Of a DNA stretch of 44,262 bases, positions 29,615-44,262 are shown in pieces. The notes beneath the pieces are model-generated. The model ran no database searches. It saw only the letters and a program-made list of their open reading frames with translations, and was not told where the DNA came from. A program made the position numbers and the translations under genes. The stretch comes from Candidatus Bathyarchaeia archaeon (GTDB taxonomy: Archaea; Thermoproteota; Bathyarchaeia; Bathyarchaeales; Bathycorpusculaceae). Location: positions 1 through 44,262 of the forward strand of contig JAVZNE010000011.1 of NCBI GenBank assembly GCA_038882975.1. Direction: 5' to 3'. Within the stretch, counting starts at the first letter, position 1. Every line of letters begins with the position of its first letter.

Positions 29615-29615
29615 T

Positions 29616-29942
29616 TTAGGCATCACCCGAAAAAATCCGCCTTTTCAAACTCTCCACACTATTTATTAGGCTTGGCTGCTGGTTTTCAGGCTCTTCAAAT
29701 TCCAGTTGAAACTTGCCGTAAAGCTTTTTTAGAATAAGCTTTTCTAGGTATGATGCTCCCGGTCCGAAGATTTTTTCCAGAGCCTTTTGGAACTCTGTTA
29801 GGTTCTGCGGGATTTCCTCCCGCTTTATTTTGAAGGTGTTTTCCAAGTGGAATAGGATGGCTTGTTTTGGCGAGTCGCCGAGGGTTGATAGTCCCTCTTC
29901 AACGGCTTCTAAGAATGTCCTTTGGAAGTCTTTTGGGGGCAC
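29616..29942 (-). CDS. DUF3227/NitrOD5-like small helical protein
   Basis: EAVEEGLSTLGDSPKQAILFHLE...F..ALEKIFGPGA..LE; paralog of the next gene. Confidence 0.7.
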   Translation of the reverse strand: MPPKDFQRTFLEAVEEGLSTLGDSPKQAILFHLENTFKIKREEIPQNLTEFQKALEKIFGPGASYLEKLILKKLYGKFQLEFEEPENQQPSLINSVESLKRRIFSGDA

Positions 29943-30048: not shown

Positions 30049-30375
30049 TCAACGCTTAGCCTTTTTAAAGCTCTGCTTAGCAGCCTCAACATAATTGACA
30101 AAAACAAACTCTTTTCGCTCGTCCCATTCAAGGGGCTTACCAATGCGGTCATAAAGCTTCCTCATTATCAAAATTTCGAGAAACCGCGCACCTATACCAA
30201 AAATTTTCTCTAGGCCTTCCGCAAAATCCCCTATGCGTTTTGGAATCTCCTTTCTGGGTATTTTGAACTTTTCTTCAAGGTGATAATAAATTGATTGTTT
30301 CGCTGAATCTCCTAGCGAAGCCAGAGCTTCGTCAACAGCTTCCAGCAGGATTTCCTCGAAGCTTTTTTCCGTCAA
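30049..30375 (-). CDS. DUF3227/NitrOD5-like small helical protein
   Basis: EAVDEALASLGDSAKQSIYYHLE...F..GLEKIFGIGA..LE. Confidence 0.7.
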   Translation of the reverse strand: MTEKSFEEILLEAVDEALASLGDSAKQSIYYHLEEKFKIPRKEIPKRIGDFAEGLEKIFGIGARFLEILIMRKLYDRIGKPLEWDERKEFVFVNYVEAAKQSFKKAKR

Positions 30376-30682: not shown

Positions 30683-30696
30683 TACTTTTGCCTTCG

Positions 30697-30729
30697 GTGT
30701 ATTCTGTATATTTAGTATATCAGAAACAC
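30697..30729. promoter_or_regulatory. Imperfect inverted repeat between divergent RHH genes (putative operator)
   Basis: GTGTATTCTGTATA-TTTAG-TATATCAGAAACAC. Confidence 0.5.
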
Positions 30730-30774
30730 TTAAAAGACTTACTCCACAAAATATCAAAGGGGAGAAGCAATAAA

Positions 30775-31206
30775 ATGAAAACTTTACGCATATCAGACGA
30801 CGTCCACCAGAAACTCACAGCCCTGTTAGGCGAGCTTATGGCCCAAACAAGCAAGATGCAAACATACCAAGACGCCATTGAAGCCATGCTATACCAGTCG
30901 GTGATACTGCCACCTGAACTCCTAAGCGAGGTTGAGCGTTTTATCCAAACCCATAAGGGGAGGGGCTACACCACTAAAGAGGAGTTTATACGCCAAGCAG
31001 TGCGCTTCATGCTGAAATGGGAGTCTGGCGGATACGAGCATGTGGAGGTTCCAAGGGAAGATTATGAAAGGCTTAACAAAGCCTTAAAGGAGATGGACAC
31101 GCCCTACACGAACGCTGAAGACTTCATTTACAAACAGATTCAAAAAGCCCTAGAACAATACGAGGAATGGCAGAAAATGAAAGATGACGTGAGGAAACGA
31201 CCATGA
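30775..31206 (+). CDS. Multi-RHH DNA-binding protein
   Basis: Three RHH-like units: MKTLRISDDVHQKL, SVILPPELLSEVE...YTTKEEFIRQAVR, HVEVPREDYERL...YTNAEDFI. Confidence 0.72.
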   Translation: MKTLRISDDVHQKLTALLGELMAQTSKMQTYQDAIEAMLYQSVILPPELLSEVERFIQTHKGRGYTTKEEFIRQAVRFMLKWESGGYEHVEVPREDYERLNKALKEMDTPYTNAEDFIYKQIQKALEQYEEWQKMKDDVRKRP

Positions 31207-31448
31207 GCCGCGCAGTGCTATCCGCCATATTAGCCGAAATCGGCATAACGCTAAACGAAACGGAAAAAGAACTACTTTACCATGAGCTTTTAGCCTATTT
31301 TGGGCTTGTCGGCGCGTTAAACGAGTGCCAAGCCCTAGAAAATGCTTGGCAAGACCCCTACAACAAACATGAAATAGAGGAGTTCATAAAAGCGTGGCTG
31401 AGGCGAAAACAGAGGCGGAGAGAAGAAATAATGACATGGGTGGTCTAG
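31203..31448 (+). CDS. Hypothetical protein
   Basis: ATGA overlap with the upstream gene; 81 aa, predicted helical. Confidence 0.65.
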   Translation: MSRAVLSAILAEIGITLNETEKELLYHELLAYFGLVGALNECQALENAWQDPYNKHEIEEFIKAWLRRKQRRREEIMTWVV

Positions 31449-31454
31449 GGCAGG

Positions 31455-31784
31455 ATGGCTTTTGACATTTCATTTATCGCAAGCATCATCATAATCCTAG
31501 TGCTTGTGCTTTTTCTACTGGTCTTCGCTTTCACAGCGCTATCCTTTCTAAAATGGATGAAAGCCTCCGCCTATTATGAGAGGCCGCCAGCCATAAAAAT
31601 GGAGGAGTACGCTTGCCCAAAATGCGGCTCAAAAGAACTGGAGCTTATTGGAAGACGCACATTAAGGTGTAAGAAATGCGGGACAATATTTACGATACGC
31701 GCTCATGCCGCTGAGGAGTATTGGGTTTTCTGGCCCTTCTTCTGGTTCTTCCCCATAATATGGTGGAAAACAATAAAAGACTAA
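31455..31784 (+). CDS. Membrane-anchored Zn-ribbon protein
   Basis: N-terminal TM, CPKCG-x13-CKKCG, aromatic C-terminal patch YWVFWPFFWFFPIIWW. Confidence 0.7.
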   Translation: MAFDISFIASIIIILVLVLFLLVFAFTALSFLKWMKASAYYERPPAIKMEEYACPKCGSKELELIGRRTLRCKKCGTIFTIRAHAAEEYWVFWPFFWFFPIIWWKTIKD

Positions 31785-31787
31785 GGC

Positions 31788-32297
31788 TCACTCTTTGGCT
31801 GTGAGAATCTCTACAAACTTTTTAAAGGTTTCAGATTTTAAAGTGGCTTTTTTGATGTCTACTTCTTCTTTTGCTAGTCGCTTGTAGACTTCAGGACTTT
31901 TGATGTAATGCCTACCTCTTTTTTGCATTATCTTCTTGAGTTCCTCTTCTGGGTCTGGTATTTCTTCCGGATTGTTTACGGAAAGCCCCGCAAGAATCCA
32001 TGATTCAACGTTCCTTTTGACAATAATGATTTGAGGTTGTAATCTTTGACTTTCCAGTTTTCTAATTTCCATTTTTAATCTGCTTACAAGCGTGGTTGTT
32101 TCTGTATCTCCTCTGTGCAAGTCTTTAAGGATTATGGCTTTTCTGATTTCTTCAGCGAAGGCCATTAGGAGGCGACGTATTTTGTCTGGTTTGTTCCCCC
32201 TCATGGGGTGAACTTTACATTGTGTTTGGAGTTTTTCGGCTACGCCTTCAATGAAGCTTTTATCTGTTATTCCTTCAACAATTATTAGCGTAGTCAA
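31788..32297 (-). CDS. TOPRIM-fold protein (DUF4276-like), partner of the ABC ATPase
   Basis: LIIVEGITD, ILKDLH, NVESWILAG; the TTG start overlaps the ATPase stop codon. Confidence 0.72.
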   Translation of the reverse strand: MTTLIIVEGITDKSFIEGVAEKLQTQCKVHPMRGNKPDKIRRLLMAFAEEIRKAIILKDLHRGDTETTTLVSRLKMEIRKLESQRLQPQIIIVKRNVESWILAGLSVNNPEEIPDPEEELKKIMQKRGRHYIKSPEVYKRLAKEEVDIKKATLKSETFKKFVEILTAKE

Positions 32298-33406
32298 GGT
32301 GTTCCACCGAATATCCCTGAGTACCATGCTTCACCTAAAGTGCCACCTTCCTCCAAAAATCGCTTCACTCGTTCCATCTCTTTGGCGGTTGACAATTTCT
32401 TTACTTTAGTTTCCAAGCCTTCTTTCCATACCACGTAAACCTCTTCTGGTTTAACGTAGTCTAGCAAGTATGGTGAATGTGTTGTTATGAGAACTTGGGA
32501 AGGCGAATCTCTCACTAGATGCATAAAAGTTTCAAGAAGGTATGGGTGAATACAGTTTTCAGGCTCTTCCAAAACCACTAGACTAGAACCGCCATAAAGA
32601 GTTGCAATCATGGCAAGAAGCCTTAAAGTGCCATCAGAAATGTTATGAGGCTTTAAGGGCTCATCTACGCCCTTAATCTTAACCCATATTTCAACATTTG
32701 TCCCCTCTATATGCGGTATCACTTCCTCGATTTCTGGAATCATGCCTTTTAAAGTCTCCTCAATGCGCCCAAAATCCTTACGTCTCTCGGTATACAAATA
32801 AAGCAGATGACGAGCCAGATTTCCACCATGATAGTCTAAAGACGGTTGTTCAGAAACAGAGTTCATTAGTCGAAGCCTATCCGGAGAAAATGAATGAACG
32901 GATATATTCCTCAAACTGGAGGCCAAATGATGAATTTCTCTTTCCGTTCCTAGGGGCAAATTCGTTAATATGCTCTTAAATGTAAGTCCGTAGTAACTCT
33001 CTTTTCCTTCAACAATAGCCTCGTGAATATATCTTTTTATCCCTTTGATAATTGCCTCTCTACCTCCTCCGTAAGATATGATTACCTCATTCCCCTTTAA
33101 TACCTGCTCATTGTAGCGTACATTTGTTAACTGAAGCGTATAACCGTAGTTTGTTCTTTCGATCAGCATTTCCAGAGCTATCCATATATCGATCGTTGGA
33201 CTGAAATTGAAGGATAGATCTTTTAGGCTTTTATAACCATCTAGTGCTGGTACTCCTTCTCTCGCGTGTCTTGCTATTAATTGAAGGGCTCTTGCTATAT
33301 TGCTTTTGCCACTGGCATTTGGTCCTATAAGAACATTTACTTTCCCAAGCTCTATGTCAACATTTTTGAGACTCAGAAAGTTTTGAATGCAAAGTCCTGT
33401 GAACAT
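32294..33406 (-). CDS. ABC-type ATPase (AAA_15/AAA_21, OLD/RecF-like)
   Basis: IQNFLSL, Walker A GPNASGKSN, signature ISDGTLR, Walker B/D-loop VVLEEPENCIHP, H-loop ITTHSPY. Confidence 0.9.
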   Translation of the reverse strand: MFTGLCIQNFLSLKNVDIELGKVNVLIGPNASGKSNIARALQLIARHAREGVPALDGYKSLKDLSFNFSPTIDIWIALEMLIERTNYGYTLQLTNVRYNEQVLKGNEVIISYGGGREAIIKGIKRYIHEAIVEGKESYYGLTFKSILTNLPLGTEREIHHLASSLRNISVHSFSPDRLRLMNSVSEQPSLDYHGGNLARHLLYLYTERRKDFGRIEETLKGMIPEIEEVIPHIEGTNVEIWVKIKGVDEPLKPHNISDGTLRLLAMIATLYGGSSLVVLEEPENCIHPYLLETFMHLVRDSPSQVLITTHSPYLLDYVKPEEVYVVWKEGLETKVKKLSTAKEMERVKRFLEEGGTLGEAWYSGIFGGTP

Positions 33407-33499
33407 TTTAGCACAAACTCCGTGCATTTTAACCTTAAAACGTCTAAATTTAAATAGGTTACTAAATACTACAACAGTACGACTCAATTTTTGTGTTTT

Positions 33500-33540
33500 G
33501 GCCAACGGGTTGGGCCTTGCTTGGGCCAATAGATTGGCCC
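33500..33540. repeat. Tandem palindromes CCAAY-NN-RTTGG upstream of the head operon
   Basis: CCAAC-GG-GTTGG at 33502-33513 and perfect GGGCCAAT-AG-ATTGGCCC at 33523-33540; cores 24 bp apart. Confidence 0.7.
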
Positions 33541-33624
33541 TTGTGTGGTACAATTCGGCTTTTCATTTTCCTCCGCGTATTCTTCTTCTGCTGAAAAGTG
33601 CGTGTTTAGGGGCTGGTGTCTGGG

Positions 33625-34830
33625 GTGCCTTGGGAAGTAACCGCCAACTATATTCGTAGTGGCCACCGAAATTTGGACGATTTTGAGCCTGAAAGTCTCC
33701 GCACAATTGTGCTTTCTGAGGCTGATGGGATTAAGGCCATCATTGGTAAGCCTAAGGGCGGTAAAGGCTCCACTGAGGTTGTTAGTTTTCTTTTTGATGT
33801 TTCTAAGGGATGGACTTTGGAGAAGGCCAAAGAATGGTTTGAGAGGCATTCTAGGCGTAAAGAGCATTTCTTTGCTGTTTTGCCCTTCAAAGTGCTTGAG
33901 AAGGTTGTTGATAAGCCGCTGCGCATCCGTGGCATAGCCCTAACAGCTGGCATGAGCCGAAACTTGAATGTTTACTTGCCTGATGAGCTTGAAGCCTTTG
34001 CCAGTCGGCTTGTTTCCGCGCCTGTTTATGTGGAGCATGTGGCTGCCGCGAATGCTGTTGGCAAGGTGGTGGACGCCCACTGGGATGGGCAGAACCTCTG
34101 GTATGAGGCTGAAATCTACGATGACGAAATCGCCGAAAAAATTCGTAAGGGGCTAATCCGCCACGTGAGCATAGGCGCCGACTACGAGCGTCTGGATTTT
34201 GTTGATGGCAAAATCCCCAAAGGCTTGCACAACGCCGAACTAAGCCTTGTGGCTGTTCCAGGTGTTCCAGAGGCGAACATCCAAATCTTGGAGAGGCTTC
34301 AGGAGCAGTGCTTCAGTCCAATAGCTTCAGGCGAGTACATTCTCGGATTTTACCAGGACGTGGAGGCTTTCATGCCAGAGCATTTCGCCACTGTTTGGCT
34401 TGACCGTGAGAATGGCGTTTTAGCCATCATGGGGCGTCCCAAAGCGCAGCCGGACACCAGCCTTGTTCAGAGCATATTCTTTGCGAAGGAGAAGATGTGG
34501 GATGAGCGGAAAATTAGGGACTGGCTTAGCTTGCATCCAGCCTACATGGCGCCTGTTCCAACGGCTAAAACTTTGAAGGAGAGTGAGGCTGGTGGTGACA
34601 GCGGCGGCGGTAAAGCTGGCTCTGGGGCTGAGGGCTTGTTTGTTAAAAGCGCCAAGCCAATGATTCCCATCGAGGATGTTGCGAGGATGATAAGGAATGT
34701 TTTGCCAAGCCCGATGGTGGAGCGTAGCTGGGGACTTGGTCCCCAAAGAATGTGCCAAGAGCTCCGCGGCGTGCTCCATAAACTAAGCAAGCTTGAAGGA
34801 GCTGTGAAACAGAATGTTTGTGGGCGTTGA
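33625..34830 (+). CDS. Caudoviricetes-type prohead protease flanked by two copies of an accessory domain
   Basis: IRGIAL..G.SRN..VY...EL, PVYVEH (His), AVGKV, HVSIG (Ser), ELSLVAVPG; lies upstream of the decoration and capsid genes. Confidence 0.82.
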   Translation: MPWEVTANYIRSGHRNLDDFEPESLRTIVLSEADGIKAIIGKPKGGKGSTEVVSFLFDVSKGWTLEKAKEWFERHSRRKEHFFAVLPFKVLEKVVDKPLRIRGIALTAGMSRNLNVYLPDELEAFASRLVSAPVYVEHVAAANAVGKVVDAHWDGQNLWYEAEIYDDEIAEKIRKGLIRHVSIGADYERLDFVDGKIPKGLHNAELSLVAVPGVPEANIQILERLQEQCFSPIASGEYILGFYQDVEAFMPEHFATVWLDRENGVLAIMGRPKAQPDTSLVQSIFFAKEKMWDERKIRDWLSLHPAYMAPVPTAKTLKESEAGGDSGGGKAGSGAEGLFVKSAKPMIPIEDVARMIRNVLPSPMVERSWGLGPQRMCQELRGVLHKLSKLEGAVKQNVCGR

Positions 34831-34926
34831 TGGCACTTTCGCGGTTGCCTATGCATGTTTGGGAGTAAGCCAGGATGAACTGGCTGAAACCGTAAAAAGC
34901 CTTTATGTATGGAGGGAGGGTGGCTT

Positions 34927-35358
34927 ATGGCTGACAACACCGGTAAGCCTTGGATGGGTATCGGCGAGACAGACGACCCTAAGGCTGTTATTGAAACCTT
35001 TGAGGCTGCAGCAGCCATAACGAAGGGCGACCCAGTCTATTTAAGTGCTGATGACAAGGTTAGCCCAGCAACTTCAGCGCAGGACTGTGTTGGCGTAGCC
35101 CTAAAGAGTGTGGCGGCAGGCGACCCCTGCCCAGTGCTGGTTCGTGGAAGAGTTAAGGTGAAGGTTGGCGGCGCTGTAACTCGTGGTAAAGCGGTTTACG
35201 GTGCTGATTCCAGTAGGCGCATTTTACAGTTGACAGACCAAGCCGTGAACGAGGGTGGGACGGCAACCTACACCATCTATTACAACCGCAAGCTTGGGTG
35301 GGCTTTGGAGTCTGCCTCTGCGGCTGAAGACCTCATTTTCATTTACGTGGAAAAGTAG
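34927..35358 (+). CDS. DUF2190-like capsid decoration/cement protein
   Basis: FEAAAAITKGDPVYL, VGVALKSVAAGDPCPVLVRG, GGAVTRG, LGWALESA; sits between the protease and capsid genes. Confidence 0.78.
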   Translation: MADNTGKPWMGIGETDDPKAVIETFEAAAAITKGDPVYLSADDKVSPATSAQDCVGVALKSVAAGDPCPVLVRGRVKVKVGGAVTRGKAVYGADSSRRILQLTDQAVNEGGTATYTIYYNRKLGWALESASAAEDLIFIYVEK

Positions 35359-35370
35359 GAGGGGCATGCC

Positions 35371-36324
35371 GTGAAACCGAGGCTTTTTGAGAGTTTGATG
35401 GAGACGGACAGCGAGTTCCGCCAGCTCATGGAGAATCTGAGCCGAAGGGCTTCGACGCATCCTTTTTTGAGGCGTTACTGTGAGGTAGCCCTCAAAGAGA
35501 GGCTTTTCAGCGACACTGTTGGCGCCATTGGGCATATGCATGACACATTGGTTGAGGCTGCCTACCCGGAAATGATTGGAAGAGAAATCGTTATGGTGCG
35601 TCCTACAACAGAAGCCATGGAAAGATTCCCGTTAGATGAGAAGGCTGTGGCTTACCGTTATGCCGAGGGCGCCTACACGAGGCTTAGTGGCAAGAAGGTC
35701 AGCACCGTGGACGTTTACACAAACATTGTGGCTGAGGCTTCTGAAGTTTGGACTAGGGAGTTTTTGGAAGACGCCACGTGGAATGTTATGGAAACCATGA
35801 CTGAGAAGGTTGGGAGAGCCCTAGGCGAGGCTGAAACCAACAAGATTCTATCCATGTATGGGGCTATTGCCAATTCGGATTTGGCTGGCGGCGCCCCAAT
35901 AGACAATAATGGGCAAGCCCTAAACTGGTCTGGCGTTGTCAAGCTTCACAATGCTGTTAGGGGCGAAAACTGGCGTCCAACAGTGCTAGCCCTAAACGAG
36001 GTTCAACTCCACCAACTACTTAACGACGACAAATTCATTCACGCACAGTACCTGCCATCAGAGCACGTGGACCTGGAGCGGGGCGTTGTCGGCAACGTTT
36101 TAGGCATGAAGGTTTTGGCAAGCACCCTAGTGCCCAACGGTGTGGCTTACGCCATAGACACAAGAGTGGCAGCGGTCATGCTTCTCCGCAGAGACATAAC
36201 TGTGGAGGACTGGGAAGACCCTAGGACGGGCGAGTTCGGAGTTAGGGCAACAACCCGCTTTGGCTTAGGCGTACTACGCAGCAAGGCAGTAGCCAAAATG
36301 GTGAACATTAGCACTTCGCTGTAG
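35371..36324 (+). CDS. HK97-fold major capsid protein
   Basis: AEGA E-loop, spine-helix region WTREFLEDATWNVME...GRALGEAE, LALNEVQLHQLL, GNVLGMKVLAS..VPNG.AY, C-terminal RFGLGVLRSKAVAK. Confidence 0.85.
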   Translation: MKPRLFESLMETDSEFRQLMENLSRRASTHPFLRRYCEVALKERLFSDTVGAIGHMHDTLVEAAYPEMIGREIVMVRPTTEAMERFPLDEKAVAYRYAEGAYTRLSGKKVSTVDVYTNIVAEASEVWTREFLEDATWNVMETMTEKVGRALGEAETNKILSMYGAIANSDLAGGAPIDNNGQALNWSGVVKLHNAVRGENWRPTVLALNEVQLHQLLNDDKFIHAQYLPSEHVDLERGVVGNVLGMKVLASTLVPNGVAYAIDTRVAAVMLLRRDITVEDWEDPRTGEFGVRATTRFGLGVLRSKAVAKMVNISTSL

Positions 36325-36376
36325 CCAAACGCCATGAAAAGGCTGACTTGAAAAAAAGGGTGGCGGGTGCCTTTTG

Positions 36377-36634
36377 ATGGAAACCCTCGAAGCGAAATGT
36401 CCAAGATGCGGCATAACCCACCAGTTGCGAAGCAAGCAAGACACTGTAATCTGCGACTGTTGGCGCATCTGCCCAATTTGCGGGGAGGAGATGACGCCCT
36501 ACACGCCTGACACTGCGCCGAAAACCTATGGGTTGGATGGCTTGAGGGAAATGCAAATCCTAATGGTTTGCACCCGCCACCACCCCAATTTTTATGGCAC
36601 GCAAAAGCCTGTGGAGGTTAGGGCTGATGCGTAA
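36377..36634 (+). CDS. Cys-rich zinc-finger protein
   Basis: CPRC, CDC, CPIC, CxxH. Confidence 0.7.
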   Translation: METLEAKCPRCGITHQLRSKQDTVICDCWRICPICGEEMTPYTPDTAPKTYGLDGLREMQILMVCTRHHPNFYGTQKPVEVRADA

Positions 36635-36866
36635 GCTCGGCGACAGGCTGCACTTGGCGAAGATTGTGCTTTCAGAACTTAAAAAACGCCCGCTGGGCAG
36701 AACAGAGCTGGAGAAGAGGACAATCCGCCAGTTTGGAACCCACAGCGCCTTCGAGGGAATATTCCGCTACCTTGTTCAGGGCGGTTATGTGACGAAAAGC
36801 GAGAGCCGCCACAGAGCACCCTACACGATAACCGAGAAGGGACTGAAGCTTCTGGAGGGCTTATAG
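36627..36866 (+). CDS. Winged-helix DNA-binding protein
   Basis: IVLSELKKRPLGRTEL...FRYLVQGGYV...YTITEKGLKLL. Confidence 0.78.
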   Translation: MRKLGDRLHLAKIVLSELKKRPLGRTELEKRTIRQFGTHSAFEGIFRYLVQGGYVTKSESRHRAPYTITEKGLKLLEGL

Positions 36867-36870
36867 GCTT

Positions 36871-38094
36871 ATGGGCAGTGTTTTAAGGCGGCTTATTGAA
36901 GCCTTCACCTTGAAAAGGCGGAGCGGCTACGCATACGCAGAACCCCAAACAGTCTACGAGACTCCGAGCATTCCATTGGCTGATGTTATTAGGCTTTATG
37001 AGCGGGACCCGGCTTGTAAGGCGAGCGTAGACCTTTTGGCGGCTTCAGCCGTTGGGATGGGCTTCTACACAACAGTGAACGAAAGGTATGCGAAGGCTGG
37101 GGAAGCCAAACGCGTCATAGACCAGTTTAATGAAGAGGCTAATTTGGACATGCTTTTATGCGACATGGCAAGAGTGCTAATCGCTTGCGGAAACGATTTC
37201 TGGCTTAAAATAACCCCTGAAAAGCTTATCAGCCTTCATCGGCTGCCAGTGGACGCCGTAGAAAAAATAGAGTACAGCCTAATCCGTGAGGCGGGACTTA
37301 AAATCCCATACAAGGTTGAGGGCTACAAGCTTCGTTTGGCTTATGGTGGCGAAACCCTAAATCCGGAGGCGGTTATCCACTGGCGGATAAACTGTTTGGG
37401 CTCTTCTGGTTTTGGAACAGGCGTCTTGCAGGTTTTGCTGCATACGCTTGCCTTCTTTTCGGATCGGCGACCAGCCTATGCTTGGATGAAAGCCAAAATT
37501 GAGCGCATAATGCCAAAAATCTTTGAGAAGTATGCCGGACCAGACGTTTTGGCTCTTCTGGAGAGGGCTGACGCTGGCACCATCCAAAAGTTTGAGAAAG
37601 CCATAAAAAGCCGCCCGGAAGAGGGCGTATGGCTATTCTACAGCGGAAAGGGCGACATAAAACCGCTTACGATAGATCCCCGCGCAAGATTCGAATATTA
37701 CGTAGACTACCTCGTGAACCAGTTCTATCTTGGGTGTGAAACGCCGCTGCCAAGGCTTTTCAGCACTCCGGGCTTCACAGAAGCCAGTGCAAAAGCCGCC
37801 TTGGAACTGCAGGACATGCTCATAAAACCCATTCAACGCTATATTAAGCGGCAAGTGGAACACGCCATTTTCAAGCTTGTTCTTGTTCAGGCTGGGCTGG
37901 ACCCTGTTGAGGCTGGTGTTCGCCTAAACTGGGGTTCTCCAAAAACGCCTCAGATAAGCGTTTCAGACATGTTGAAAGCCGCTGAGTTGGGGCTTATCCG
38001 CCTAGAAGAGTTCCGCAAAAACGCCTTAAAGTGGGGTTGGGAGTTGTGGGAGCGCTCCGAAACCACTCCAGAAAGGCGGGAGGCAGAAGCCTAA
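36871..38094 (+). CDS. Phage portal protein
   Basis: 407 aa; LYERDP..KASVD, GMGFY, LIACGNDF, EAVIHWR....FGTGVL, TPLPRL, EASA, IKPIQRYIKRQVE, EEFRK; located in the head-gene cluster. Confidence 0.8.
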   Translation: MGSVLRRLIEAFTLKRRSGYAYAEPQTVYETPSIPLADVIRLYERDPACKASVDLLAASAVGMGFYTTVNERYAKAGEAKRVIDQFNEEANLDMLLCDMARVLIACGNDFWLKITPEKLISLHRLPVDAVEKIEYSLIREAGLKIPYKVEGYKLRLAYGGETLNPEAVIHWRINCLGSSGFGTGVLQVLLHTLAFFSDRRPAYAWMKAKIERIMPKIFEKYAGPDVLALLERADAGTIQKFEKAIKSRPEEGVWLFYSGKGDIKPLTIDPRARFEYYVDYLVNQFYLGCETPLPRLFSTPGFTEASAKAALELQDMLIKPIQRYIKRQVEHAIFKLVLVQAGLDPVEAGVRLNWGSPKTPQISVSDMLKAAELGLIRLEEFRKNALKWGWELWERSETTPERREAEA

Positions 38095-38211
38095 TGCTGT
38101 TTTTCCACGTGTTTTCTCCTTTCTCCCCTCGAAAAAGGGTGCACGCCTTCCCTCTTTCTGGGTGGCGGAACAGCCTTGGAAAAGGGCATTAAGCGTTAGG
38201 GAGGTGACTGG

Positions 38212-38451
38212 ATGAACCTTCTACATATCGGTTTGGGTGTTGGCGCCGCTTTAGCCTACGCCTTTCTAGGGTTTGCAGCCCAAGAAAAGCCCTTCAACTG
38301 GCGAAAGTTCCTCAGAACAGTGGCTATTGCCGCCTTCTCAGCGCTTGGCTTGGACTTGGCTGGAATGACCTTTGACGTTTACACAGCCCTTGTTGGACCA
38401 ACAGCCATAACGGTTTGGCTTCAAAAGCTTGTGGACACTGCTAAACACTGA
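38212..38451 (+). CDS. Small multi-TM protein, holin-like
   Basis: 79 aa with 2-3 hydrophobic segments and a FNWRKFLRT loop; strong GGAGGTGA RBS. Confidence 0.55.
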   Translation: MNLLHIGLGVGAALAYAFLGFAAQEKPFNWRKFLRTVAIAAFSALGLDLAGMTFDVYTALVGPTAITVWLQKLVDTAKH

Positions 38452-38477
38452 AAACAGGCGAGGGAGTGCGACATAAA

Positions 38478-38711
38478 ATGAGCCAGGAAGTGCCCTATTG
38501 GCGTTATGAAGAGGCTTTTAAGGCTGTTCACAGTGCCCTAAGCGGACTTATGGCTCCTCCAAGCGGTAAGAGGGTTACAAAGCTGACGTTTACATGGAAT
38601 GCCGACGGCACTATTAGTACTATTAAGGCGTTTATGGGCGAGGAGTTGCTTTTCACCCTCACCTTTTCTTGGAACGCGGATGGCACTTTGCGGGAGGTGG
38701 CTCGAACATAG
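38478..38711 (+). CDS. Virion-associated hypothetical protein with a duplicated TF(T/S)WNADGT motif
   Basis: LTFTWNADGTI and LTFSWNADGTL beta-hairpin repeats. Confidence 0.6.
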   Translation: MSQEVPYWRYEEAFKAVHSALSGLMAPPSGKRVTKLTFTWNADGTISTIKAFMGEELLFTLTFSWNADGTLREVART

Positions 38712-38764
38712 GCTGGTTTAACCAGTCTATGCGGGAAACCAATAGAATGGAGGATTGATATAGG

Positions 38765-39250
38765 ATGGAGAAAAGTGTTGGAGCGTTAGTGCGATACCGT
38801 GTGATTAAGCGAAGGCTCAGCGAGCAAAAGCCCTACGCCATAGACGAAACAGAGCACAACTGCTTCCTCATCGAGGGCATGAATGAAATGTGGAATTTGA
38901 TTTTGGGTTTGACGGCGACGCCTTTCAACAGTTCAAACGCGTATATAGGCGTTGGCGACGGCACAACCGCCGAAAGCGAAGCTCAGACGGGATTGCAGGG
39001 CACAAACAAGTATTATAAGGGCATGGCAAGCGGCTATCCACAAGGCCCTTCACAGGCTGGCGATAAAAAAGCAATTTTCAGAGCAGTCTTTGCCAGTGGC
39101 GAGGCGGAATTCGCTTGGAACGAGGTCACTGTGGCTAATGGCAACAGCGACTCCGCCGTAAACATGCTACGCATAGTGGCTTCAAAAGGCACAAAGAGTA
39201 GCGGTGAAGAGTGGACGGCTGAAGTGGAAGTACAGTTCCAGAACCCATAA
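38765..39250 (+). CDS. Putative tail/fibre-attachment structural protein
   Basis: YIGVGDGTTAE...T.L, F..GEAEFAWNE, KGTK.SGEEW pattern, recalled from phage tail-fibre N-terminal-type domains. Confidence 0.55.
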   Translation: MEKSVGALVRYRVIKRRLSEQKPYAIDETEHNCFLIEGMNEMWNLILGLTATPFNSSNAYIGVGDGTTAESEAQTGLQGTNKYYKGMASGYPQGPSQAGDKKAIFRAVFASGEAEFAWNEVTVANGNSDSAVNMLRIVASKGTKSSGEEWTAEVEVQFQNP

Positions 39251-39267
39251 ACTGAAGGGGGCTAAAA

Positions 39268-39627
39268 ATGTCAGAGATTTCAAGGGACGTGATTCTCGAC
39301 AAGTTTAAGGCCGTCAAGAAAGACAAGGATGTCATTTTGTTTAGGCAGTTAGAAAGTGGCTGTTACGTTGGCATAACGGCTGAAGACTTTGCTAAAATGC
39401 TTGACTGGATTTTGAAGGGTAAGGTTGTCGAGGAAACTGTGAAAGGCTATGCGGAAGACGGCGCGCCCATCATAGAGCGGAAAGAAAGAGACCTGACATT
39501 GGAAGAAATAAAGCAGCGATTTAAGGACAGCGGCTATGTTGAAATTCTTGAAGATATGCTTGCTAAAGGCGTGGTTAAGCTGAAGGATTTGCTTGAATTG
39601 TTTGGGGGTAAATTGCCATGGCGGTAG
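39268..39627 (+). CDS. Hypothetical protein
   Basis: 119-aa charged ORF tightly packed in the operon. Confidence 0.65.
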   Translation: MSEISRDVILDKFKAVKKDKDVILFRQLESGCYVGITAEDFAKMLDWILKGKVVEETVKGYAEDGAPIIERKERDLTLEEIKQRFKDSGYVEILEDMLAKGVVKLKDLLELFGGKLPWR

Positions 39628-39905
39628 GCGACGTTAAAAGCGACTTGCAAAGCATTGCGGCTGGAGCTTTCTTGGCTATTCAGCCCCCTCAAGGCGAGGA
39701 ATGGGTTATCCATAACATTTATCATGAGCATGATGTTGAGCTTCACTTTTATGATGGAACAAACAGCCTTGCCTTTGACACAGATGCTGGCGCCGGCGTT
39801 TATGCTAAATATGCTTTTCATTGCACTAACAGCCGCTATATCCGCGTGAAAAACACGAACACTTCAGCCCGCCTAATAGGCTTCTGCGGTGTGCAGACTA
39901 AATGA
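39618..39905 (+). CDS. Small beta-rich hypothetical (putative structural) protein
   Basis: Overlaps both neighbours; IQPPQGEEWVIHNI, YIRVKN. Confidence 0.65.
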   Translation: MAVGDVKSDLQSIAAGAFLAIQPPQGEEWVIHNIYHEHDVELHFYDGTNSLAFDTDAGAGVYAKYAFHCTNSRYIRVKNTNTSARLIGFCGVQTK

Positions 39906-40651
39906 CAAGGTTAACGCCTCTGCTGACCAACCTCAAAACGTTAGATATAACTTACTCTAAGCAAGAAACGCTTTTAGATACGCCTGAAACTTTGCCCACA
40001 AGCGAGCCCGCCACTCCGCAGATAGGCTACACGGTTCAGAACAGCGATTTGCCCGTTTTGAGCTTTCCACCTTACAAAAAAGTTTGGGTTGCCTTTCTCT
40101 TAGGCGCAGGAAAATTCCCTACCGCTGGAACAATTTACTGGCGTATGAAAAAGAACGGTGCAAATGTTGCTTCAAGTTCAACTTCAGTTTCAACAAACTA
40201 TTATTATACTGTGTGCTGTTTTTTCAATAATGTTGCTGTAGACGATGTTCTAGAATTAGCCTTATGGTCAAGTGTAAACGGTAACAACTGGGATTATAAA
40301 GCATTTCAAATACAAGTTTCACGCATAATTCCCACAAATAAGCCGAGACTGCTTATGCCATGCGCTTTCACCTCGCTTGCCACGCATCCACAACTAACTC
40401 TGGGCAACCCATCATCATCTGTCACCAACCTTTACATCTACCACCTTGATAAAAACATTGGTAACATTAACACTGCCACAACATATGAGTGCATGTACCC
40501 CAAAGACACTTATGGATTATGCCAAATCTATTACGGCGACAACTATCTACCTAACTCTGCCACCGTTAGAACAAGCAGCACTTACCGCCCATATTATTAC
40601 CGCAACTATGTTCCAGCCCAGATACGGTTCAGAGGCGTAAAAATTGACTGA
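39902..40651 (+). CDS. Beta-rich T/Y/N-rich protein, possible receptor-binding or fibre protein
   Basis: 249 aa, AT-richer than its neighbours, coupled overlaps on both sides. Confidence 0.55.
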   Translation: MTRLTPLLTNLKTLDITYSKQETLLDTPETLPTSEPATPQIGYTVQNSDLPVLSFPPYKKVWVAFLLGAGKFPTAGTIYWRMKKNGANVASSSTSVSTNYYYTVCCFFNNVAVDDVLELALWSSVNGNNWDYKAFQIQVSRIIPTNKPRLLMPCAFTSLATHPQLTLGNPSSSVTNLYIYHLDKNIGNINTATTYECMYPKDTYGLCQIYYGDNYLPNSATVRTSSTYRPYYYRNYVPAQIRFRGVKID

Positions 40652-41186
40652 GACCAGCGAATATGGCGACGTAATCACAAACGCCTATATAGACGAATGG
40701 GGAAGACGGCGAGCCAACAGCCTATTAGAGGACGGTGTCAAAATATTAGCTTTTGTTGGCGCGCCAATAATTAGGGCGTGGTTTAACTCGCTGATGGCAA
40801 CCCACAATCTTAGGCGCCCCCACCGCGCTATAAAAATGGCTCAAGCTTTGCAGACATTGCATACATGGTTTGTCTCTGTTCCAGCAGTGATAATTAGGCA
40901 GTGGTCTGCAACCCTCAAATTGTCCCACATCCTCCGCAGACCGGAAAGGAAAATGCTTTACACACAAGCCTTAAAACCCGCCCACACATTAAGAAAACCC
41001 TTAAGAGTTATAAGGATTCCAGCTCTTCTCAGCTTAATCCACACCCATAGACGACCGCACCGCCTGATAAGGCTTCTTCAACTGCCAGGGCTAATCCATG
41101 TATGCTATATTTCTAAGCCCGGCGTGAAGAAAACAAGGCTTTTCCTAGTGATAGGTGAGTTAGCCCTTCAACTATCCGGAGACTAA
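40644..41186 (+). CDS. Basic protein with ~19-aa HxxRRPxR repeats
   Basis: HNLRRPHR, HILRRPER, HTLRKPLR, HTHRRPHR. Confidence 0.6.
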   Translation: MTETSEYGDVITNAYIDEWGRRRANSLLEDGVKILAFVGAPIIRAWFNSLMATHNLRRPHRAIKMAQALQTLHTWFVSVPAVIIRQWSATLKLSHILRRPERKMLYTQALKPAHTLRKPLRVIRIPALLSLIHTHRRPHRLIRLLQLPGLIHVCYISKPGVKKTRLFLVIGELALQLSGD

Positions 41187-42188
41187 AACCTTCATTTTAA
41201 ACTGGTACGTTGTGTTCTCGTCTATTACGTAGAAGATATGCTCCTGATCTTCAGTCACATGCACCACTGGTTTTGCGAGAATCTCAGCGATCTTCGCCAG
41301 TTCGCTTAAATCCTTAACCTCTATGATTGTCTGCGGCAAAGTTTTCGGTGCTTCCAAAGCTTCAACAACTAGATCCTTGTAAGGCGCTATAATCCTCTCC
41401 AATGGTTTCCAAACCCTCGGCTTGGCCTTAAAATGGAAAAATGTTGAGAAGGTCAACCCAGCCAAAGCCGCTACAACTAAAATGTATGAGACGTAACGTT
41501 GACCGACAACTTCCTGATGGATTATTTTTTCTGTCTCTGTTAGTGCACCAGCCTTCGAGTGATGTAATGGCGCGATAACTGTTATTTCGCCCTTGTCGGT
41601 TTGCTGAAAAGAAATTATTAAGGTTGGCGAAAACATCTCATTTATCCTTCCAACAGTTGTTTCGGCTCTCACGGTGAAGGTTGGCTTAATCTCCAAGCTG
41701 TATGCCCTTGTGCTAGTCCCAATTTCTGCATCCATTTCCGCCTTCAACTGGTCTAACCATGTCTTATTTACTGTTGGAAAAGCGATTTCGATTTGTGTCT
41801 GGTCCGTTGTGTTTGGCGCGGTTCTGCTTATCTCATAAGTCCACCCTGAAGCCTTGAGGATCCACATTACAGTGTAGGTTATTTGGACACTTGTCAGTGG
41901 CTGGCTTGCGTTAAACTTGTATGTTAAGGTTAAATTTATGTTGCGAACCAGCCTCGTATAAAGCGTTTCGTATTCTGGTCCCACCACGCTTTTATTGTCA
42001 TACACGAGGTTCGGCGTTTTAACCAAAGCCAAATAATTGTAGTTCGCTATACTTTCATAAGCGCAAAGCGTTTTTGTTTCAGACTCCTCCACGGGAATTT
42101 GATGCACAACATAAAATGTCACAAGTGCAATTATGGTTAGAATTATAAATACTGCGAGGAGAACCATGGTCTTTTGGAGCTTCCTCAA
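41172..42188 (-). CDS. DUF5305-like two-TM membrane protein
   Basis: N-terminal TM, extracellular beta domain with N-x-S/T sites, second TM, C-terminal YKDLVVE...IEVKDLSELAKIAEILAKPVVH...YVID..T.Y. Confidence 0.75.
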   Translation of the reverse strand: MRKLQKTMVLLAVFIILTIIALVTFYVVHQIPVEESETKTLCAYESIANYNYLALVKTPNLVYDNKSVVGPEYETLYTRLVRNINLTLTYKFNASQPLTSVQITYTVMWILKASGWTYEISRTAPNTTDQTQIEIAFPTVNKTWLDQLKAEMDAEIGTSTRAYSLEIKPTFTVRAETTVGRINEMFSPTLIISFQQTDKGEITVIAPLHHSKAGALTETEKIIHQEVVGQRYVSYILVVAALAGLTFSTFFHFKAKPRVWKPLERIIAPYKDLVVEALEAPKTLPQTIIEVKDLSELAKIAEILAKPVVHVTEDQEHIFYVIDENTTYQFKMKVLVSG

Positions 42189-42299
42189 ACTTCCACACAG
42201 CCAATATTTTACTTTTAAAATGATGTTTCTTGAAAAATGTTTTGTTAGTAAGAGTCTTCAGTATTCATTTGCAAAGAGCTTACTAGAAGATTTTTATTT

Positions 42300-42323
42300 T
42301 AATCTAGATTTCTAATCTAGTTT
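42300..42323. promoter_or_regulatory. Tandem TAATCTAG(A/T)TT repeats, putative operator
   Basis: TAATCTAGATT (contains the palindrome AATCTAGATT) and TAATCTAGTTT, 13 bp apart, in the divergent intergenic region. Confidence 0.45.
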
Positions 42324-42366
42324 AAAAATTCTTACCTCTTTATAAAGGGGCGTTCACCCCTTTTAT

Positions 42367-42780
42367 GTGGAGATAGGAAGTGGGATTTTGCCGACAAAAC
42401 TTGAGAAACTTCTAGAGGTTTTAGGCGATGGAGCATGGCACCCTTTAGAGGAAGTCGCCAAAGCCCTGAACATGCCGGCGGAGAGGTTTCAGCAAGTGGT
42501 GGATCTTCTTGCCGATGTTGGAATAATTCAGCGAAATTCAGCTACAAACGAGGTTAAGTTAAACCAGAACTGGAAGACCCTCATGATTGGTCAGGGAGAT
42601 GAGGGCTTGGAAGACTCTGAGAAACCAATTTACGGAAAGGTGCTTGGCACCATAATAGTTCCTCCCCAAAAGGCTGTTGTTATCCAGTGCACTCAAATAA
42701 CAAACCTCACGGATACAAGCCTTGAACTTGAAATATGCGTCGATAAGAAGATTGAAGAAATAACTATAAGCAAAGTTTAG
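42367..42780 (+). CDS. HTH protein with a small C-terminal beta domain
   Basis: LLEVLGDGAWHPLEEVAKAL...VVDLLADVGII. Confidence 0.7.
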   Translation: MEIGSGILPTKLEKLLEVLGDGAWHPLEEVAKALNMPAERFQQVVDLLADVGIIQRNSATNEVKLNQNWKTLMIGQGDEGLEDSEKPIYGKVLGTIIVPPQKAVVIQCTQITNLTDTSLELEICVDKKIEEITISKV

Positions 42781-43043
42781 ATGGAAAAGAGCTCGTCTGC
42801 CCTCTGTAAAATTTTGAGGAGTTCCTTTCCCTTATCAGTTGTTTTAAATATGGTTATCCCGCTCGGATTTGGGGTTATGCATTCCAGTAACTTGGCTTTC
42901 AACAGTTCTCTTAAATAATAATTGAATCTTTCGAGGTTTAAGTTACACCTATACATAAGCCTTGTCTTGTTGGCTCCATTCAAGGCTTCGCTTAAAATTT
43001 CGCAAATAATCTCCTTCTTGCTCCTCCTCTTCCGCTCTCCCAT
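42777..43043 (-). CDS. Archaeal winged-helix regulator (HTH_45-like)
   Basis: RRSKKEIICEIL, GANKTRLMYRCNLN, FKTTDKGKELL. Confidence 0.85.
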   Translation of the reverse strand: MGERKRRSKKEIICEILSEALNGANKTRLMYRCNLNLERFNYYLRELLKAKLLECITPNPSGITIFKTTDKGKELLKILQRADELFSI

Positions 43044-43284
43044 ACGCAGACTCTTCAATCGGATTTGGAATTAGAACAATTGGGTGTCATATTAAATGCT
43101 AAAACCCTCTAATAAAATTAACGATTAACCATTAAAATACATCAGAAAAGCACAAAACAAAAGTATTTTAATAAAATAGCGAAAATTTTTTGGTTAAATA
43201 AAAAATTATTCAGAAAATAGCTTTATAAACGTGAAAATTGCTTAAATTTTGCCCCTCCAAATTCCTTATCGGAGGCAGCAGCGT

Positions 43285-43638
43285 TTGGCAAGTGTTTCCG
43301 TTGAGGATGTTCGGGATGTCTTAAACATAGGGGCTGCTGACATTCCAAACGAGAAAATTGTTAAGATGATTAAGAGGGCTGAGGTGGCTTTAGAGCTTGA
43401 GCTTGGAAAGGATATCGACTACGCGGACTGCACAGAAGCTGAAAAAGAGGCTATAACGCTTCTTGCAGCCATATATGCCATCTGCTATTTGACGGGCGGC
43501 TCGGCTGTTGGCTTAAACTTCACTCTAGGCGACGAAGGCATAAGCGTACTAAACAATGCTCCGCCACTGAATGTTCTGCAGAGCGAGTTAGAGCGAATTT
43601 TAGCCGTTTTAAAGCAGCCCCATTTTGGGAGGGTTTAA
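43285..43638 (+). CDS. Putative head-tail adaptor/connector protein
   Basis: (M)ASVSVEDVRDVL...IPNEKIVKMIKRAE helical pattern, then G.NFTLGD..IS hairpin, as in gp6/gp15-like adaptors; GGAGG RBS. Confidence 0.62.
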   Translation: MASVSVEDVRDVLNIGAADIPNEKIVKMIKRAEVALELELGKDIDYADCTEAEKEAITLLAAIYAICYLTGGSAVGLNFTLGDEGISVLNNAPPLNVLQSELERILAVLKQPHFGRV

Positions 43639-43643
43639 GCCTT

Positions 43644-44262
43644 TTGGGAAAAGTTCCAGAAGCCTATTACGCCTTTGTCATGGATTATGCACCCTACGTT
43701 TATGTTTTTCCGCCGGGCAATCCAGACCAGGAATGGGGGCGGGCAGCCTTTGCAGCAGCCTTCGCCATAGACTTCCTTTATGAGGCTTATTTCGCCAAAC
43801 AGTTTAGCAACCGAAAAACAGTCATATACAACAAGATTGTTTCGCTGGCGGATTGGATTTTAACCCAGCAGTGCACAGATCAGCAGAAAAAGGCTTATGG
43901 CGGATTTCAAAGTACAGAAAACAGCACTTATTATTATGCCATTGATGCTTGCCGTGTTATTCCATCGCTTCTTAAAGCCTATGAGTTGACTGGCAACGGC
44001 GACTACCTAAATGCTGCACGGTTGGCTGGAAACACTTTCCTTAGGGTTATGCAGGAAAAACAGCCTTATGGTGGTTTTGCAAGAGCCGTTGATATAAGCG
44101 ACCATTGGCTTTTGCAGTTGGATGTTGAATGCCTTTATGGGCTTATTGGCTTAAAAATGTTGGCTGAAAAGTATGATGTGGCAAACGCTGGTCTATACCA
44201 AAACATGATGCACAAGGCTGCTGATTTCCTCCGCGAGGGCTTTGAAGGCTTATGGCTTCACT
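43644..44262 (+). CDS. Alpha/alpha-toroid protein (six-hairpin glycosidase or prenyltransferase-like), 3' end outside window
   Basis: Not in the ORF track. Manual translation: MGKVPEAYYAFVMDYAP...LADWILTQQC...YGGF...LLKAYELTGNGDYLNAARLAG...QPYGGF, open to the window end. Confidence 0.65.
   Translation, partial: MGKVPEAYYAFVMDYAPYVYVFPPGNPDQEWGRAAFAAAFAIDFLYEAYFAKQFSNRKTVIYNKIVSLADWILTQQCTDQQKKAYGGFQSTENSTYYYAIDACRVIPSLLKAYELTGNGDYLNAARLAGNTFLRVMQEKQPYGGFARAVDISDHWLLQLDVECLYGLIGLKMLAEKYDVANAGLYQNMMHKAADFLREGFEGLWLH

Follow-up and report, generated by a model that had tools for sequence, protein, structure and literature searches.

The window analyzed here is a stretch of 44,262 nucleotides from a Candidatus Bathyarchaeia archaeon and represents the entire contig JAVZNE010000011.1 (C11) of the metagenome-assembled genome (MAG) GCA_038882975.1 (G000; 15 contigs, 1.42 Mb, 94.7% complete, GC content 0.445). 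Its right part carries the head genes of an HK97-type particle, and the gene cluster to which they belong is the subject of this work. A first-pass annotation of the window had described these genes as an intact head module without terminase or integrase and had proposed a host-retained, particle-making locus. We compared the locus with other MAGs, including four sister species (G003, G005, G007 and G013) and two more (G010 and G011), a member of another genus (G021), the complete Bathy-6 MAG CP170178 (G041) and two further Bathy-6 genomes (G042 and G043), as well as with 18 public sequencing runs in the form of assembled contigs. Coordinates refer to the plus strand.

Head genes in the window

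From 33616 to 41186 the window contains an unbroken run of plus-strand genes with uninterrupted open reading frames (ORFs), which starts with the following head genes (protein lengths in amino acids, aa):

33616-34830, + strand: probable prohead (assemblin-type) protease, 404 aa, first gene; phrog_976 E 0.007
34909-35358, + strand: cement/decoration (or scaffold-like) protein, 149 aa; PF09956 (formerly DUF2190) E 8.3e-13, PF22758, PF23982, phrog_673 E 5.7e-13
35371-36324, + strand: HK97-fold major capsid protein, 317 aa; PF05065 E 5.7e-7, 29.6 bits (cut-off 24.2); phrog_267 E 3.1e-14
36374-36866, + strand: two small conserved genes, 86 aa (Cys-rich, Zn-ribbon-like) and 90 aa; sub-threshold Zn-ribbon matches only
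36871-38094, + strand: probable portal protein, 407 aa; PF04860 E 1.2e-4, 21.8 bits (cut-off 39.1)
38212-38451, + strand: hydrophobic protein, 79 aa, with 2-3 membrane-like segments in a hydropathy scan; no family match
38466-39250, + strand: two conserved genes, 81 aa and 161 aa; the 161-aa protein matches phrog_23653 (unknown function), E 1.1e-40

The GC content over the head genes is 0.50-0.55, against 0.445 for the genome. The cement and capsid genes, already named by the first-pass annotation, were confirmed by their profile matches and are uninterrupted in the window. The capsid protein also matches TIGR01554 (E 4.2e-5, below the cut-off), is the only PF05065 match in the G000 genome and is 97-99% identical in the four sister species at synonymous distances (dS) of 0.06-0.37. 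The suggestion of a prohead protease found moderate support: H141 and S185 of the 404-aa protein are invariant in an alignment of 15 sequences, and its AF2 model (pLDDT 56) gave T4 gp21 (5jbl, E 0.029) and herpesvirus proteases as the best Foldseek matches, with E values of 0.03-0.3. We place the protease domain, which scores below curated thresholds, probably at residues ~100-215; it is flanked by duplicated domains, and the helical C-terminal part may act as a scaffold. Similarly, the 407-aa protein is a probable portal. Its PF04860 score lies under the curated threshold, while every nearest named Atlas cluster (0.97) is a portal family. Profile searches of the PDB with alignments of this protein, the 404-aa protein and a 130-aa protein of the packaging module (see below) returned nothing below E 0.04.

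The order of the 86-aa and 90-aa genes is conserved in most of 110 related loci. Judging by its hydrophobicity, the 79-aa protein, 95-100% conserved within the genus, may be taken as a holin-like candidate, as had been proposed. The 81-aa and 161-aa genes, conserved in both the resident and the provirus lineages described below, are predicted to encode head completion or connector proteins and probably do so. Among the sequencing runs, contigs of the RNA-library run X16 covered 35389-36585 (the capsid gene and the one after it) with 90-98% identity, but hardly any other part of the element. These contigs are too ambiguous to count as expression and DNA carry-over is possible; no weight attaches to parts that are uncovered in every run.

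Tail and packaging genes on a second contig

The last 127 bases of C11 are identical to the first 127 bases of another G000 contig, C14, and the two contigs join into 66 kb. By blastn the join is collinear with G005 and G013 and, more distantly, with G021. The module does run off the right edge of the window, as the first-pass annotation had noted, and the tail genes start at the C11-C14 junction:

C11 43249-43638, + strand: 129-aa protein, conserved first gene of the tail module; no family match
C11 43644-44262, + strand, continuing to C14 1-897: 462-aa gene, of which the first 206 codons lie in the window; weak C5-epim_C match
C14 1-5268: tail genes
C14 8411-10725: type II methylase with a 326-aa and a 165-aa gene; GC content 0.35-0.38
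C14 10805-11197: 130-aa protein, always ahead of the TerL module; highly conserved
C14 11718-13082: TerL, large terminase with ATPase and nuclease domains; PF03237 E 5.5e-17 and PF17289 E 3.8e-10, both above cut-off; phrog_2 E 7.1e-43
C14 13064-14584: 506-aa ABC-type ATPase fused to a GNAT acetyltransferase, overlapping the end of TerL

The tail genes encode, in order, proteins of 129, 462 and 146 aa, a tube-like protein (289 aa; PF18906 E 1.7e-14), a 185-aa protein, a Neck1/gp10-like connector (193 aa; PF04883 E 2.6e-8, phrog_5 E 3.4e-20), a 182-aa protein and a YqbQ/VgrG-like protein (539 aa; YQBQ-like PF24032 E 5.6e-14); the tail PHROGs are phrog_290, phrog_5 and phrog_400. No sheath gene was recognized among the scanned tail ORFs. 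The 129-aa gene always directly precedes the 462-aa gene in related loci, and the frame of the latter is uninterrupted in G005, G003, G007 and G013. In the Atlas the 462-aa protein is nearest to viral hypothetical proteins (0.97), with glycoside hydrolase- or lyase-like clusters at only 0.81; as a lead, it is possibly an (alpha/alpha)6 glycosidase-like enzyme. The fibre-like protein and head-tail adaptor previously proposed for the window gained no family support there, and the recognizable connector is the Neck1/gp10-like protein on C14.

The packaging module consists, in order, of the 130-aa gene, a 76-aa gene, a variable 111-aa ORF, TerL and the ABC-ATPase/GNAT fusion, and is followed on the right by a nucleotidyltransferase gene and then by the host TldD/PmbA genes. 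TerL is the only PF03237 match in the G000 genome, in which PF03354 (TerL_ATPase) has no match. The genome is thus not devoid of a terminase. The gene lies 11.7 kb into the next contig and the impression of its absence arose because a contig break separates the head genes of C11 from C14, a practical warning that such a break alone can produce an apparent lack. The 111-aa ORF is a candidate small terminase. The ABC/GNAT gene also follows TerL in a second copy of the element in G005, in G021, in Bathy-6 and in the two tail-less contigs of IMG/VR that reach that far. The AF2 model of the 130-aa protein (pLDDT 77) is an SH3-like barrel with weak resemblance to ribosomal protein barrels (E >=0.013). 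NCBIfam added nothing for the protease, portal, 462-aa, tube, 326-aa and 161-aa proteins.

Between the tail and packaging modules lie a DHDPS-family gene on the opposite strand, an AbiEii/PIN toxin-antitoxin pair, and the type II methylase with its two unknown genes. The core of the element measures ~20 kb, or 26 kb counting this inserted cargo, which differs between species. For example, the methylase cassette is 98-99% identical among G000, G005 and G013 (dS 0.005-0.06) and absent in G003 and G007, and it looks like recently spread, restriction-modification (R-M)-like cargo. We considered the three genes as a replication module and rejected this on account of their absence from G003 and G007, their near-identity elsewhere and their low GC content. 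The second copy in G005 has a compact layout of ~19.5 kb, in which the tail genes are followed directly by the 130-aa, 76-aa, 111-aa, TerL and ABC genes, which marks the DHDPS gene, the toxin-antitoxin pair and the R-M cassette as insertions. The possibility that the DHDPS gene is an essential host gene that splits the element was likewise dismissed, given two paralogues elsewhere in the G000 genome and its absence from the second G005 copy. This copy is diverged (capsid 77% identical) and found at another site, on G005:C4 (L104) and G005:C3 (L105 and L106). A contig break with a 127-bp overlap interrupts it, and no tyrosine integrase was found on its contigs.

Absence of recognizable mobility and replication genes

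The window itself holds no integrase, terminase or tRNA, in agreement with the first-pass annotation, and this remained so for integrases and tRNAs when the search was extended. There are eight PF00589 matches in the G000 genome, none of them on C11 or C14, and no tRNA was found within the 66-kb join. No tyrosine integrase was detected near the element in G005, G013, G003, G007 or G021, with one exception, a 218-aa integrase fragment in G005 located beyond the host TldD/PmbA genes. Among 37 ORFs scanned from the head genes to TldD, no recombinase or replication domain was recognized, including primase, helicase, polymerase and initiator domains, although small unannotated ORFs remain. Comparing the candidate borders revealed no att-like repeat, direct repeats shared between them being at most 14 bp long.

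A fixed chromosomal site, with relics where the element is lost

To the left of the head module lie genes of the host flank:

25694-29626, - strand: 1310-aa PAS/GAF sensor histidine kinase; Pfam PAS, GAF, HisKA and HATPase_c
29616-29942 and 30049-30375, - strand: two paralogous 108-aa genes, oriented away from the head module; weak NitrOD5 match, E 0.0057, below cut-off

The kinase confirms the signalling genes noted earlier in the left flank. It is the conserved left neighbour of the element throughout the genus and in several other genera (its orthologues adjoin the element in G005, G013, G003, G007, G021 and G019), and it is still present in G010 and G011, which both lack the element. The 108-aa genes, which may encode signalling output proteins partnering the kinase, are also kept in G010 and G011. 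Kinase and 108-aa genes were considered as parts of the element and rejected, since their normal conservation persists where the element is deleted; the kinase also occurs in genomes without a capsid gene.

Sister species and other genera of one GTDB family carry the element at one and the same chromosomal site. Nucleotide identity to G013 is 84-90% in the flanks, 87.8% in the head, 80.9% in the tail and 92.4% in the packaging region. The cluster is thus syntenic, a check proposed with the first-pass annotation, and its divergence is similar to that of the flanks. In species-representative genomes, nearly all of them Bathyarchaeia, 61 loci encode relatives of the capsid protein (58-99% identity), and IMG/VR contigs added 49 more. 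Among sampled Bathyarchaeia genomes 93 of 401 carry the capsid gene, and families other than that of the window mostly gave only distant matches of <=49% identity.

Two genomes without the element, G010 and G011, are particularly informative. They are 97-98% complete, have no capsid match and are 97% identical to G000 in RpoB where measured. In both, the two flanks lie on one contig, 4.9-6.7 kb apart, with relics of the element between them and no clean attB. G010 has kept the N-terminal 45 codons of the protease (query residues 3-47), TerL codons 399-424, the PIN gene and fragments of the DHDPS and ABC genes; G011 has kept DHDPS and AbiEii, part of the 111-aa ORF in inverted orientation, and ABC fragments. 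Because the empty sites hold internal relics, these genomes represent decay of an ancestral resident by deletion, not excision or primary absence.

Elsewhere, G021 contains ~21 kb of unrelated sequence between the portal gene and a remnant of the tail module (G021:C1 ~338400-359300, L034-L035). Furthermore, an intact TerL of the resident type is present in the sister species G004 (contig C21, 96% identical) and G001 (contig C15, 89%), neither of which yielded a capsid gene; with these MAGs at 84-87% completeness, the head genes may be lost or merely unassembled.

Purifying selection and co-divergence with the host

We calculated ratios of nonsynonymous to synonymous substitution (dN/dS) by the Nei-Gojobori method for G000 against G005, G003, G007 and G013. 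The dS values are ~0.15-1.6 in the comparisons with G003, G007 and G013, and below 0.05 in the near-identical G005 and G007 pairs. Against G003, G007 and G013 most head, tail and TerL genes have a dN/dS of 0.03-0.2, compared with 0.03-0.28 for genes of the flanks. Individual ranges are 0.03-0.05 for the capsid, 0.05-0.10 for the portal, 0.08-0.14 for the protease, 0.05-0.18 for the cement protein, 0-0.06 for the 79-aa protein, 0.11-0.13 for TerL, ~0.05 for the 130-aa protein, 0.21-0.31 for the ABC gene and 0.37-0.70 for the 111-aa ORF. Tail genes mostly lie at 0.09-0.21, with the 129-aa gene and the 193-aa neck gene reaching 0.35; tail values are also higher in the near-identical G005 and G007 pairs. 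The element is under purifying selection, and the low dN/dS anticipated for a domesticated system was borne out.

The phylogeny of the element follows that of its hosts. A tree of capsid and portal proteins with 56 rows contains one clade of 34 rows (SH-aLRT 100). The 108-aa genes adjoin the head module in 27 of the 45 rows for which the upstream flank could be judged, Bathy-6 included, and the clade holds 26 of these 27 copies but a single one of the 18 without such neighbours. The 108-aa genes are a marker of the resident site. The resident clade spans hot-spring genera and Bathy-6. In 14 genomes with resident copies, the capsid and portal distances correlate with those of RpoB (Mantel r 0.909, 0 of 5000 permutations as high), which answers positively the question of whether these proteins track the host tree; the element and RpoB trees have their main groupings in common and broadly similar shapes. 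The identity of TerL drops in step with the host, from 96% to 85-89% and then to 67%, and between hosts with 82% RpoB identity the capsid retains 72%.

Split loci and mobile relatives

CP170178 belongs to the same GTDB family as the window. Here 22 kb separate the head-tail module and the 108-aa gene from the packaging module (130-aa, 76-aa, 111-aa, TerL and ABC genes), which is encoded on the opposite strand and has a TerL of 67% identity. The genes in between encode an ECF S component, a GHMP kinase, a GH5 cellulase, a tubulin-like protein, a Zn-alcohol dehydrogenase and a DeoC aldolase. No PF00589 match occurs within 1.44-1.50 Mb of CP170178. The modules have the same spacing, ~26 kb, in G042 and G043. 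In two other genomes, a TerL of the same identity class shares a contig with the capsid gene at distances of 92 and 181 kb.

A provirus occupies 811-852 kb of the same CP170178 genome, where it adjoins tRNA-Asn and terminates in an integrase-like ORF. It has its own, different terminase upstream, an extra gene of 649 aa and ~8 kb of further tail genes. Its head-tail module is homologous to that of the resident element and keeps the gene order, with identities of 64% for the capsid, 63% for the portal and 42-54% for tail proteins. In contrast, the window element has no tRNA, integrase, upstream terminase or extra tail genes, and its TerL-ABC genes lie downstream of the tail. The provirus at 811-852 kb is probably the one of 46.8 kb described for CP170178 in the accessible part of PMC11697101. 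Another relative, BATPV1 (JAAKEZ010000002), was reported in the available portion of PMC11705971 as a complete provirus whose limits were set from integrase, repeat and tRNA markers and which carries pPIWI and CpcE as cargo. It probably corresponds to our locus L074 on the same contig, which has the same capsid family (69% identical) and the same compact head-tail-130-76 order and, unlike the window element, falls outside the resident clade and is not beside 108-aa genes. Among IMG/VR contigs, six (L117, L119, L120, L124, L127 and L146) show a compact tail-less form in which the head and portal genes are directly followed by the 130-aa, 76-aa, 111-aa, TerL and ABC genes.

Surveys of Bathyarchaeia viruses and proviruses (PMC10848311, PMC11705971 and PMC11697101, in the parts available to us) describe relatives as ordinary proviruses, and our literature search found no paper treating these elements as vertically inherited or GTA-like, that is, like a gene transfer agent (GTA); two surveys of proviruses that were examined contain no such reading either.

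Variable genes and strain-specific insertions around the module

The remaining genes of the region are less conserved and comprise the following:

39268-41186, + strand: variable region with ORFs of 119, 95, 249 (Ser/Thr/Tyr/Asn-rich) and 180 aa (Arg/His-rich repeats); no family matches
41172-42188, - strand: 338-aa DUF5305 membrane protein; PF17231 E 2.2e-17; hydrophobic segments at residues 2-34 and ~232-254
42367-43058, both strands: 137-aa ORF (+) and 93-aa winged-helix regulator (-); PF14947 HTH_45 E 3e-17
30688-31784, + strand: three small genes of 172, 81 and 109 aa, the last a Zn-ribbon protein with an N-terminal hydrophobic segment; weak BAR_4 and Zn-ribbon matches only
31788-33553, - strand: AAA_21 ATPase (419 aa) and DUF4276/Toprim-like protein (179 aa), a candidate defence pair; PF13304 E 1.9e-30

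In the variable region, the 249-aa and 180-aa ORFs are 51-69% identical among sister species, compared with 93-99% for the head genes. By tblastn the 119-aa, 95-aa and 249-aa ORFs had no match in G013 and the 180-aa ORF only a partial one (query residues 50-180, 57.5%). The end of the 180-aa ORF resembles that of the 649-aa ORF of the integrase-bearing provirus. These ORFs are candidate host-recognition or fibre-like genes. The DUF5305 protein, 70-72% identical in G005, G003 and G013, is a cargo or host-type gene within the element. The 137-aa ORF and the winged-helix gene were not found in G005, G003, G007 or G013, and have homologues in G021 and in the IMG/VR contig L121.

On the left side, homologues of the 172-aa gene occur near the second G005 copy (70%), in L122/L152 (57-61%), in L059 and in G021. 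Since homologues accompany non-resident copies too, this gene may belong to the element family. The defence pair (PADLOC HEC-01A E 6.4e-53 and HEC-01B E 1.6e-5; GC content 0.39-0.40) sits between the kinase flank and the head genes, exactly at the left edge of the head module. It is specific to G000, being absent in G005, G013, G003 and G007, and metagenome contigs connect position 31783 directly to 33500 without it. The pair is a strain-specific insertion outside the particle gene set. Two further strain-specific islands, both absent from the syntenic regions of G005 and G013, lie farther left: one at 4438-7414 with a 934-aa ORF, and one at 10536-16836 with a 713-aa subtilase-like ORF (PADLOC 'subtilase' E 7e-31) and, after it, a 1337-aa ORF without a match. 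A simple k-mer scan of G000 found no CRISPR array.

Discussion

The head genes in the window are best regarded as the left half of one cluster that continues on C14. We consider it somewhat better than an even bet that this cluster is a vertically inherited, selected and non-mobile particle gene set, GTA-like in its genomic behavior. The cluster would be a grounded, vertically inherited derivative of a siphovirus-like provirus family of Bathyarchaeia, because integrase-bearing proviruses with a homologous head-tail module exist. The host lineage would keep it because head-tailed particles are presumably still made. Production would probably be under host control, with the PAS/GAF kinase and the two small output-like proteins as candidate regulators. 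The most likely use would be GTA-like: TerL would fill capsids with chromosomal DNA, the cell would release the particles and the tails would deliver the DNA to relatives. Such packaging of host DNA appears to be the most economical use, although the sequence by itself does not separate it from self-packaging by a locked virus or from another particle role. The host-retained particle locus of the first-pass annotation thus keeps its host retention and its lack of mobility and is partly supported, on other evidence, while the premise of a missing terminase is gone. That absence would in any case not have been a GTA-like trait, because RcGTA encodes a terminase.

Several observations weigh against a vertically inherited and selected gene set. 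The distribution is patchy, with the capsid gene in 6 of 13 species of the genus and in 62 of 147 sampled genomes of the family of the window, G000 not counted. Patchiness had been named in advance as a sign of an ordinary provirus; the relics at the empty sites nevertheless point to deletion. Resident copies are frequently eroded. In G013 a ~980-bp deletion leaves TerL at 263 aa and the Neck1 gene is shortened, most tail genes are missing from G021, whose TerL is of another type (37% identical), and the tail module is incomplete in L051, L057, L059 and L065; selection has thus not been universal. The capsid dS against G013 is 0.145, with flanks at 0.5-0.8, so that segments, those of the flanks too, have recombined between species, which weakens a purely vertical story; such a mosaic in and around the locus also fits gene exchange by a GTA-like system. 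The head genes have kept their own GC content instead of ameliorating to 0.445, which is surprising in a resident of great age. Additional copies located elsewhere in G005, G006, G015 and A05DMB-2, together with the integrase-bearing members, indicate that the family is or was mobile. Family scans of the element ORFs recognized no tape-measure protein and no lysis enzyme. Finally, every genome compared is a MAG, in which binning or assembly errors are possible, and with regard to particles, packaging and transfer the element is known here from its genes alone.

Some of these points would suit an ordinary self-mobile temperate provirus that always enters the same site and co-speciates with its host, its integrase or excisionase and replication functions being unrecognized, encoded elsewhere or borrowed from the host. 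The complete set of head, tail and terminase genes, with intact frames under purifying selection, would be expected of it, as would a variable region resembling a host-range module, and it would account for the foreign GC content of the head genes and the exchange between species suggested by the dS mosaic. Related elements at the 49 IMG/VR loci, the extra copies in some genomes and the homologous integrase-bearing proviruses, as described in the accessible parts of PMC11697101 and PMC11705971, are in line with it. It is nonetheless unlikely. No integrase is found on the 66-kb join or near the element in five relatives, save the 218-aa fragment in G005; there is neither an att repeat nor a tRNA, and empty sites show relics rather than a clean attB. 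Moreover, mid-element cargo differs between species, 22 kb of cellular genes separate the modules in three Bathy-6 genomes, and the divergence of the element equals that of its flanks.

If the element does not move, it could be an inert, slowly decaying remnant without function, its frames still intact through short divergence or hitch-hiking. The truncated TerL and Neck1 genes of G013, the relics in G010 and G011, the tails lost from G021 and L051, and the absence from more than half of the sampled family genomes are what such decay would produce, and defence, toxin-antitoxin and R-M cargo has gathered inside and beside the element, as in decaying islands. Yet more than 20 genes are open in four species at dS ~0.15-1.6 (G003, G007 and G013), with dN/dS of 0.03-0.2, no higher than in host flank genes. 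The capsid is conserved at 72% identity across hosts at 82% RpoB identity, and TerL is full-length though 22 kb from the head genes (92-181 kb if those copies are of the same lineage). We therefore hold an inert remnant to be very improbable.

The element might also be helper-dependent or satellite-like, making its own capsids and packaging DNA while depending on co-resident proviruses for replication, tails or release, or it might serve another particle role such as killing or the exclusion of related viruses. The six tail-less IMG/VR contigs and several resident copies that lost tails and keep heads would suit a satellite, as would tail and connector genes homologous to those of integrase-bearing proviruses of the same host family. 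The YqbQ-like tail domain recalls defective phages of the PBSX type. On the other hand, G000 holds no second capsid, terminase, tube or tail set that could act as helper, and no integrase, primase or repressor module was found, unlike what is generally described for capsid-forming satellites; for a killing role, no evidence bears on such a function. We regard these alternatives as improbable too. Two narrower candidates were discarded: a cf-PICI-like capsid-forming satellite, which would combine its own capsid, portal and terminase with integrase and replication modules and lack a tail, whereas here tail genes are present and neither integrase nor replication genes were found, and an encapsulin or other portal-less compartment, as portal, TerL and tail genes accompany the capsid gene.

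Domesticated particle systems, among them GTAs and tailocins, have been amply documented in bacterial hosts. For archaea, to our knowledge, there is essentially one poorly defined case, VTA of Methanococcus voltae. A vertically inherited, non-mobile gene set in Bathyarchaeia would share with RcGTA a chromosomal set of head, tail and large-terminase genes without integrase or replication genes, host inheritance under purifying selection, frequent incompleteness or loss in some lineages, parts at more than one locus in some genomes and host signalling candidates. It differs in its archaeal host, in showing no specific sequence relationship beyond shared phage families, in its gene order (protease-cement-capsid-portal, then tail, then TerL) and in head genes whose GC content is not ameliorated. 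Random packaging, a small head capacity, host regulation and transfer are features of RcGTA, against which only genes can be set here. VTA, as usually characterized, is a host-made particle carrying host DNA in another phylum, and any likeness is a functional conjecture. Enterobacterial defective prophages, too, are understood to be grounded, inherited vertically under purifying selection and persistent across species at low dN/dS, in bacterial hosts, unlike here. PBSX is known as a killing particle with a contractile tail, whereas the present element has a YqbQ-like domain and no sheath gene was found.

All the genomic marks of domestication that can be looked for in the absence of a culture are present here: a fixed site, the lack of mobility genes, co-divergence with the host, purifying selection, losses that leave relics, and split loci. 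They occur in an abundant, almost uncultured archaeal class, and the integrase-bearing sister proviruses in the same host family offer a natural before-and-after comparison. More speculatively, and with the odds against it, this might be the first GTA-like system of Thermoproteota: family-wide and vertically inherited, with its own TerL packing chromosomal DNA, the kinase and output proteins as its switch, and split loci in Bathy-6. Because Bathy-6 enrichment cultures exist, as stated in the accessible part of PMC11697101, a direct test of this idea is feasible. If true, it would provide uncultured sediment and hot-spring archaea with a dedicated route of gene exchange.

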